A stretch of 64,000 nucleotides of DNA from assembly GCF_965118125.1 (NCBI RefSeq), contig NZ_OZ221287.1:423238-487237 (forward strand), in the 5' to 3' direction. The notes beneath the pieces are model-generated. The model saw only the letters and a program-made list of their open reading frames with translations, searched no databases and was not told where the DNA came from. The stretch is from Pararobbsia alpina (GTDB taxonomy: Bacteria > Pseudomonadota > Gammaproteobacteria > Burkholderiales > Burkholderiaceae). Below are positions 19,177 through 19,266 of the stretch, in pieces (the stretch's first letter is position 1; every line of letters starts with the position of its first letter). Both the position numbers and the translations under genes were made by a program.

Positions 19177-19266
19177 GCCAGAGCCAGAGCCAGAGCCAGA
19201 GCCAGAGCCAGAGCCAGAGCCAGAGCCAGAGCCAGAGCCAGAGCCAGAGCCAGAGCCAGAGCCAGA
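19177..19266. repeat. Perfect hexanucleotide tandem repeat (GCCAGA)x15
   Basis: Fifteen uninterrupted 6-nt units read directly from the sequence. Intergenic, 130-220 bp upstream of the htpX start and just downstream of the LysE-family gene. Confidence 0.95.

Follow-up and report, generated by a model that had tools for sequence, protein, structure and literature searches.

The locus examined here raises the question of whether a long, perfect hexanucleotide repeat, located a short distance upstream of the protease gene htpX in a window of 64,000 nucleotides (the whole stretch of DNA analysed) from Pararobbsia alpina, modulates the expression of that gene or merely changes in length without consequence. 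The array was located at positions 19177..19269, with no strand assigned, and reads (GCCAGA)15.5 on the plus strand. Tandem Repeats Finder (TRF) reported a period of 6, 15.5 copies of the unit GCCAGA, 100% matches, 0 indels and a score of 186. Both TRF and the raw sequence thus bear out the original observation of a perfect hexamer between htpX and a LysE-family gene; its uninterrupted nature stands, and its end was corrected from 19266, which was 3 nt short, to 19269, as the run goes on through GCC. In htpX orientation the array is GGC(TCTGGC)15, with a GC content of 67%. A probe of three units gave 14 overlapping matches in the 64 kb window, all of them at the array, against 0.01 expected from dinucleotide shuffles, and none of 100 such shuffles reached 14 matches. 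With its short unit (6 nt), head-to-tail arrangement and high purity the array is a simple sequence repeat (SSR), and its placement in the intergenic spacer between the LysE-family gene and htpX, as had been proposed, was confirmed.

The gene downstream of the array, htpX, encodes an M48 zinc metalloprotease of 286 aa (18185..19045, minus strand; Peptidase_M48, Pfam PF01435, E 2.8e-36). Its product is identical to WP_413194734.1, named HtpX [Pararobbsia alpina]; the next-nearest HtpX proteins are metagenomic or from Pararobbsia silviterrae (93–94%), and those of Paraburkholderia, Caballeronia, Trinickia and Burkholderia share at most 88% identity with it. On the other side lies the LysE-family exporter gene, referred to as lysE, of 258 aa (19358..20134, minus strand; Pfam PF01810, E 5e-41), which is co-directional with htpX and has its stop at 19358. 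The exact 258-aa LysE-family product was also called on two public contigs. This protein contains an Ala/Gly-rich low-complexity internal segment, and the homologues in relatives measure 223–254 aa. Both genes belong to the cluster def-fmt-lysE-htpX-rsmB, with fmt upstream, rsmB downstream and all flanking genes on the minus strand. Read in gene orientation, the lysE stop is followed by 88 nt, by GGC(TCTGGC)15, by 131 nt and by the htpX ATG (19045, minus strand), which places the array 132–224 nt upstream of that ATG.

Since such repeats are hard to size, and one assembly taken alone may miscount the copies by a unit or more, the tract or its length could be an assembly or sequencing artefact. 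Close relatives were obtained solely by protein search and exact-protein look-ups, and the latter identified four other contigs with the array, from three data sets: L001 and L177 (run ERR14208477), L178 (run SRR34139756) and L002 (JGI metagenome 3300073944). L001, on the htpX side, and L177 and L178, on the lysE side, end about 30 nt into the array, and their flanks are identical to the window. In these Logan short-read contigs the array-end stretches occupy positions 1..30 (L001), 2369..2395 (L177) and 1431..1457 (L178). Contigs that end inside the array from both sides are what would be expected of a real repeat longer than the assembly k-mer, and it is at the hexamer array that short-read assembly systematically breaks, separating lysE from htpX. 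The junctions recur in all four contigs and one of these spans a complete, shorter array, so that an artefact is hardly credible.

The contig spanning the whole locus, L002, carries 8.7 perfect units where the window carries 15.5. It comes from a different strain, with an HtpX identical to that of the window and about 2% DNA divergence (97.6% identity in the htpX coding sequence and 98.8% in that of lysE). The flank between the repeat and the ATG on the promoter side (19046..19176) is 94.7% identical, and its 7 mismatches all fall at or upstream of the -35/-10 spacer; the lysE-side flank is 85.9% identical with 24 gap columns. Variation in copy number between strains, as originally predicted, was therefore found for two alleles, 15.5 and 8.7 units, in strains with identical HtpX. 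These are the two alleles sized at full length, and the shorter comes from a metagenome assembly, in which collapse of the array is conceivable. Both arrays are perfect despite the substitutions and indels in their flanks, and perfect arrays beside diverged flanks are to be expected if slippage constantly renews the array. At least three TCTGGC units were present in only four of the 178 fetched loci, namely the four contigs described above. A search of metagenome contigs for the exact 26-nt promoter pattern gave 0 matches, and protein-based scans of genome and metagenome contigs yielded nothing nearer than 88% HtpX identity.

A coding role for the array was considered, either as an N-terminal (LW)n extension of HtpX starting from a TTG at 19336 or as a separate small repeat protein, with (SG)n or (LA)n frames on the minus strand and (PE)n, (SQ)n or (RA)n frames on the plus strand. 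None of the six frames is interrupted within the array, the LW frame runs on into htpX and a 6-nt unit keeps the frame. Open frames are, however, unavoidable here, since GCCAGA/TCTGGC contains no stop in any frame. The htpX start in relatives is ATGTT[CT]AA[CT], found in 80 of the 80 species loci listed and, together with an open frame, in 146 fetched loci; the start ATGTTCAA is common to the window and its relatives. The supposed extension would also include the conserved htpX promoter and the GAGG ribosome-binding site (19057..19054), no frame is conserved upstream of that promoter, the repeat is missing from 174 of the 178 fetched loci and gene callers on public contigs give an HtpX of 286 aa. 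Translation of the array thus appears extremely unlikely. The original judgement that the (LW)n open reading frame is not a gene was upheld by the start in relatives, at the ATG equivalent to 19045, and by the conserved promoter inside the frame; the accompanying remark that the 6-nt unit preserves the frame lost its relevance, because the tract is non-coding.

Structural explanations were assessed by folding. Folded as single-stranded DNA, the two strands of the array were no more stable than their shuffles (z -0.5 and +2.3), and the same held for the spacer RNA (z +1.27). No Rfam family matched the array or the spacer at the gathering threshold or at E<=1. Hairpin-driven instability and a structured RNA were ruled out by the folding results. 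Elsewhere in the window, Rfam family RF02278 (Betaproteobacteria toxic small RNA) matched positions 54857..54921 on the minus strand with 50.5 bits, the gathering score being 50.

Any effect of the array on transcription depends on where the htpX promoter lies. In Escherichia coli, htpX is a member of the sigma32 regulon. A putative sigma32 (RpoH)-type promoter, CTTGAA-N13-CCCCAATCT, was detected at 19115..19088 on the minus strand, downstream of the array, with the -35 element CTTGAA at 19115..19110, a 13-nt spacer and the -10 element CCCCAATCT at 19096..19088; the conserved block runs on to CTTACAAC (19071). Within the 64 kb window the pattern CTTGAA-N13-CCCCAWNY matches here alone, and tolerating 1 mismatch adds no further site (expected 0.06). 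Compared with the published sigma32 consensus CTTGAA-N13-17-CCCCATNT (PMC4263515), the -10 element is off by 1–2 bases. This likeness to heat-shock promoters concerns the sequence CTTGAA-N13-CCCCAATCT directly upstream of htpX, a neighbour of the array, and not the array itself. Judged by its motif and its conservation, the promoter would be dependent on sigma32/RpoH.

Conservation of this promoter extends well beyond Pararobbsia. The motif TTGAA[AT]-N13/14-CC..W..T was present in 116 of 147 loci across the Burkholderiaceae, these being the loci with a recognisable htpX start, and across the nine listed loci of the Pararobbsia clade it keeps a fixed distance of 41–44 nt to the ATG. Most Burkholderiaceae loci share the block ATTGAATTTTTCC...CCCATATCTAACA...GCTTACAAT; this block of about 45 nt, ATTGAATTTTTCC-N-CCCATATCTAACA-N-GCTTACAAT (window 19071..19115, minus strand), is common to Paraburkholderia, Caballeronia, Trinickia, Burkholderia and Pararobbsia. 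The conservation does not end at the -10 element but continues through CTTACAAT, as might be explained by a conserved start region or by a second, overlapping signal. In an alignment of the Pararobbsia clade the invariant columns comprise CTTGAATTT, AATCTAAC, CCTT.CA and GAGGCAA and continue to the ATG, and no conserved columns were found upstream of the -35 element CTTGAA. There the sequence varies, and the lysE–htpX spacer ranges from 108 to 312 nt in length.

A distance of 61 nt separates the array from the -35 element downstream of it, and no part of the array lies in the 13-nt promoter spacer or in the 5'UTR; if transcription starts near 19081, it would occupy roughly -95 to -188. As the core promoter and 5'UTR are downstream of the array, a change in its length cannot alter the -35/-10 spacing or the 5'UTR, and as conservation in the clade ends at the -35 element, nothing conserved lies further upstream whose spacing could be disturbed. 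The expectation that copy number would alter the spacing of htpX promoter elements was therefore not supported, the sole sigma32-type promoter (19115..19088) being situated downstream of the array and 61 nt away from it.

The remainder of the spacer was inspected for further signals. Between the array and the -35 element is a GC-rich segment of 61 nt (19116..19176, minus strand) that is conserved only within the window's own lineage. It contains a 12-bp palindrome, TGTCGCGCGACA, which was rejected as an operator, being broken in L002 (TGTCGCGCGGCA) and missing from other relatives; in GC-rich DNA such a palindrome has probably arisen by chance. A sigma54 promoter within the array was dismissed by inspection, as the GG-N10-GC register does not fit TGGCTCTGGCTCTGGC, and a sigma70 promoter within the array was dismissed because no sigma70-like sites were found in the scan. 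Across the whole lysE–htpX spacer, the scan found no sigma70-like promoter and no canonical intrinsic terminator. The LysE-proximal spacer (19270..19357, minus strand) holds degenerate, GC-rich, hexamer-like relics (GGGCCC, CGCTCT and GGACTC), which are covered by a TRF row of period 24 at 19178..19297. It is the fastest-evolving part of the locus and cannot be aligned across the clade.

The lack of a terminator bears on a second way in which the array could act. If lysE transcripts read through, the array would be transcribed, since no terminator was found in the spacer, and as part of the lysE 3'UTR or of a lysE–htpX read-through transcript its length could modulate termination, read-through or RNA stability, in the manner of a transcriptional spacer or insulator. 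The shared direction of lysE and htpX and the absence of a canonical intrinsic terminator from the spacer scan are in keeping with this idea. It is nevertheless highly improbable given that the spacer RNA shows neither better folding than its shuffles nor an Rfam match, that relatives function with repeat-free spacers of 108–134 nt and that htpX has its own conserved promoter.

The same spacer was then compared among relatives, measured from the lysE stop to the htpX ATG. It is 312 nt long with (TCTGGC)15.5 in the window and 264 nt long with (TCTGGC)8.7 in L002 (HtpX identity 100%). In L172 (95%) it measures 284 nt and contains a 40-mer in 2.1 copies, also read as a 21-mer in 4.6 copies, and in L164–L169 (94%) it measures 215–223 nt with 3–7 copies of a degenerate 14-mer (TCTCCGCCTGAGCC). 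The P. silviterrae locus L170 (93%) has a spacer of 288 nt with only (CGGCGGCG)x2.2, at a TRF score of 36. No tandem repeat was present in the spacers of L163 (93%, 108 nt), L171 (88%, 110 nt) and L174–L176 (88%, 134 nt). In a neighbour-joining tree of htpX DNA the long-spacer lineages cluster together. Among L164–L169 the internal 14-mer units differ even between contigs with 99.8% identical htpX.

The sister-lineage arrays contain degenerate -35-like copies (CTTGAG, CCTGAG, CCCGAA and CTTGAA) that grade into the real -35 element, at positions 2290..2389 of L164, 62..170 of L168 and 363..476 of L172. From their sequence, these arrays appear to be tandem duplicates of the segment nearest the promoter. 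A short CTCCCGGCT string is found next to both the hexamer and the sister 14-mer arrays; a common origin of the two was not accepted, as the shared CTCCCGGCT is suggestive only and the alignments cannot show it.

Tandem repeats are not confined to the slot upstream of htpX. TRF on the relatives detected a 17-mer in 12.6 copies (L165) and a 15-mer in 6.8 and a 9-mer in 14.2 copies (L170) in the fmt–lysE and htpX–rsmB spacers, where arrays were located at 1171..1384 of L165, 1179..1294 of L164 and 1237..1338 and 3371..3497 of L170. The window's own fmt–lysE and htpX–rsmB spacers contain no tandem arrays. The occurrence of arrays in neighbouring spacers shows tandem repeats to be general in the intergenic DNA of the Pararobbsia clade, and intergenic tandem repeats turn over quickly throughout the gene cluster. 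The htpX upstream slot was consequently rejected as a special repeat hotspot, equally strong arrays being found in the fmt–lysE and htpX–rsmB spacers of the same loci.

The window itself contains a second perfect SSR, (TGACCCGC)x7 (35565..35620, intergenic, TRF score 112). An ORF on the minus strand that begins MNDAASRCPSPG has its ATG (about 35511) only about 55 nt downstream of this SSR. Being much nearer a start codon than the htpX repeat, the second SSR is the better candidate for an effect on expression. Imperfect tandem repeats were recorded at three sites with TRF scores of 66–91: a 15-mer in 5 copies adjoining a 24-mer in 2.2 copies (27591..27705), a 26-mer in 2.2 copies (49416..49471) and a 12-mer in 5.8 copies, also read as a 24-mer in 2.0 copies (58675..58743).

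These comparisons are relevant to the idea that the array serves as a distal rheostat or phase-variation element, in which the number of units would determine how far away, or on which face of the helix, an upstream feature (a regulator site, a bend or contacts of the RNA polymerase alpha-CTD) lies relative to the sigma32 promoter, so that htpX would be tuned stochastically. The array is indeed upstream of the promoter, its length differs between strains and, by arithmetic, the DNA above it turns by about 200 degrees with each 6-bp step; the nadA tract, too, precedes its core promoter, and its effect comes about by a change in the spacing of operators (PMC2791445). Against this, no conservation was found upstream of the -35 element, the slot is only 108–134 nt long and without a repeat in L163, L171 and L174, and it is filled by unrelated repeats in L164–L169 and L172. 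The array starts 61 nt above the -35 element, past the usual reach of UP elements, and is GC-rich (67%) rather than AT-rich, and the equally repeat-rich neighbouring spacers of relatives indicate that htpX is not singled out. In addition, htpX is a housekeeping quality-control protease gene, unlike the surface and host-interaction genes typical of contingency loci. Taken together, such tuning was considered very unlikely. The absence of conservation upstream of the -35 element argues against an old regulatory site and not against a recently evolved one, and a young, lineage-specific regulator site may lie beside the array. A quantitative effect of repeat length on htpX could also arise through lysE read-through, DNA bending or a lineage-specific upstream factor.

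A further possibility, which we regard as very unlikely, is that the array is a contingency element for envelope- and heat-stress proteolysis, with slippage shifting the sigma32 htpX promoter in distance and helical phase relative to the DNA above it (lysE read-through or a lineage-specific bound factor) and so creating subpopulations that differ in basal HtpX. If this were true, the different repeats in the slot of three Pararobbsia sublineages would represent selection for a tunable spacer and not neutral turnover. If the array did tune htpX, this would be one of the rare instances in which an SSR varies a housekeeping stress protease; no support for it was found here.

The array is best explained as an intergenic VNTR (variable-number tandem repeat) that is driven by slippage and affects htpX expression little or not at all, a reading to which we assign a probability of roughly 0.8. 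The array is located in the sole part of the lysE–htpX spacer without detectable constraint, between the lysE stop and the -35 element, and under this explanation would grow and shrink in whole 6-nt units by replication slippage (slipped-strand mispairing). Slippage would also maintain the perfection of the array while its flanks gather substitutions. With the promoter, the 5'UTR and the ribosome-binding site all downstream, and nothing conserved upstream of the -35 element, a change in length only shifts the lysE 3' end relative to the promoter, so that htpX expression is probably affected little or not at all. Mutation by slippage is suggested by the perfection that both alleles retain beside their diverged flanks, and the array would appear to be selectively neutral.

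Several consequences, of modest practical value, follow from this description of the locus. With conserved flanks, at least two alleles and steps of 6 nt, it offers a ready-made, high-resolution typing marker for the Pararobbsia lineage, and the array explains the breaks in short-read assemblies between lysE and htpX. The comparison also marks where constraint upstream of htpX ends, namely at the -35 element of a sigma32-type promoter common across the Burkholderiaceae. Finally, the intergenic spacers of the clade are unusually rich in fast-turnover tandem repeats, like those of B. pseudomallei.

Among known systems, the classical contingency repeats lie between the -35 and -10 elements, as do the TA repeats of Haemophilus influenzae hif and the homopolymers of Neisseria opc and porA. 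The array resembles these in being a simple repeat near a promoter that would mutate by slippage. In the classical cases, however, the repeat changes the length of the promoter spacer, whereas the 13-nt spacer of htpX is fixed and the array is outside the promoter, neither between the -35 and -10 elements nor between the promoter and the start codon. Among repeats that precede a core promoter, the nearest functional parallel is the TAAA tract of nadA in Neisseria meningitidis (Metruccio et al. 2009, PMC2791445), which also lies outside its core promoter, on the upstream side, and varies in number between isolates. That tract is located at about -55 to -85, is AT-rich, overlaps contacts of IHF, NadR and the alpha subunit and is flanked by defined NadR operators and an IHF site (PMC2791445). 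The htpX array, in contrast, is GC-rich, starts 61 nt above the -35 element and precedes a housekeeping protease gene, and no conserved regulator sites flanking it were found in the clade alignment or in L002, where the 5' flank is only 86% identical and carries indels.

The nearest likeness is with the VNTRs used for MLVA in Burkholderia (U'Ren et al. 2007, PMC1853098; Romero et al. 2006, PMC1574311), which are of the same family and also intergenic. In B. pseudomallei the majority of tandem repeats are intergenic and have units of 6–9 bp, and rates of mutation exceed 1e-5 per locus per generation (PMC1853098); in B. mallei, SSRs accounted for 24 of the 33 intergenic indels that appeared during passage (PMC1574311). 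The array shares with these VNTRs a unit in the dominant 6–9 bp class, a unit whose GC content is near the genome's own, a copy number that differs between close strains while the flanks are conserved, and a presumed slipped-strand mechanism. It differs from them in its host, Pararobbsia being a different genus and an environmental lineage, and in its 15.5 perfect units, which exceed the 4–10 units typical of Burkholderia VNTRs. The variability expected from the B. pseudomallei and B. mallei VNTRs was thus recovered in the form of two alleles. As the host is Pararobbsia, a member of the Burkholderiaceae, and neither B. pseudomallei nor B. mallei, the comparison is an analogy at the level of the family. 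As a bacterial VNTR the array is of the ordinary kind, here in a host lineage that is new for it.
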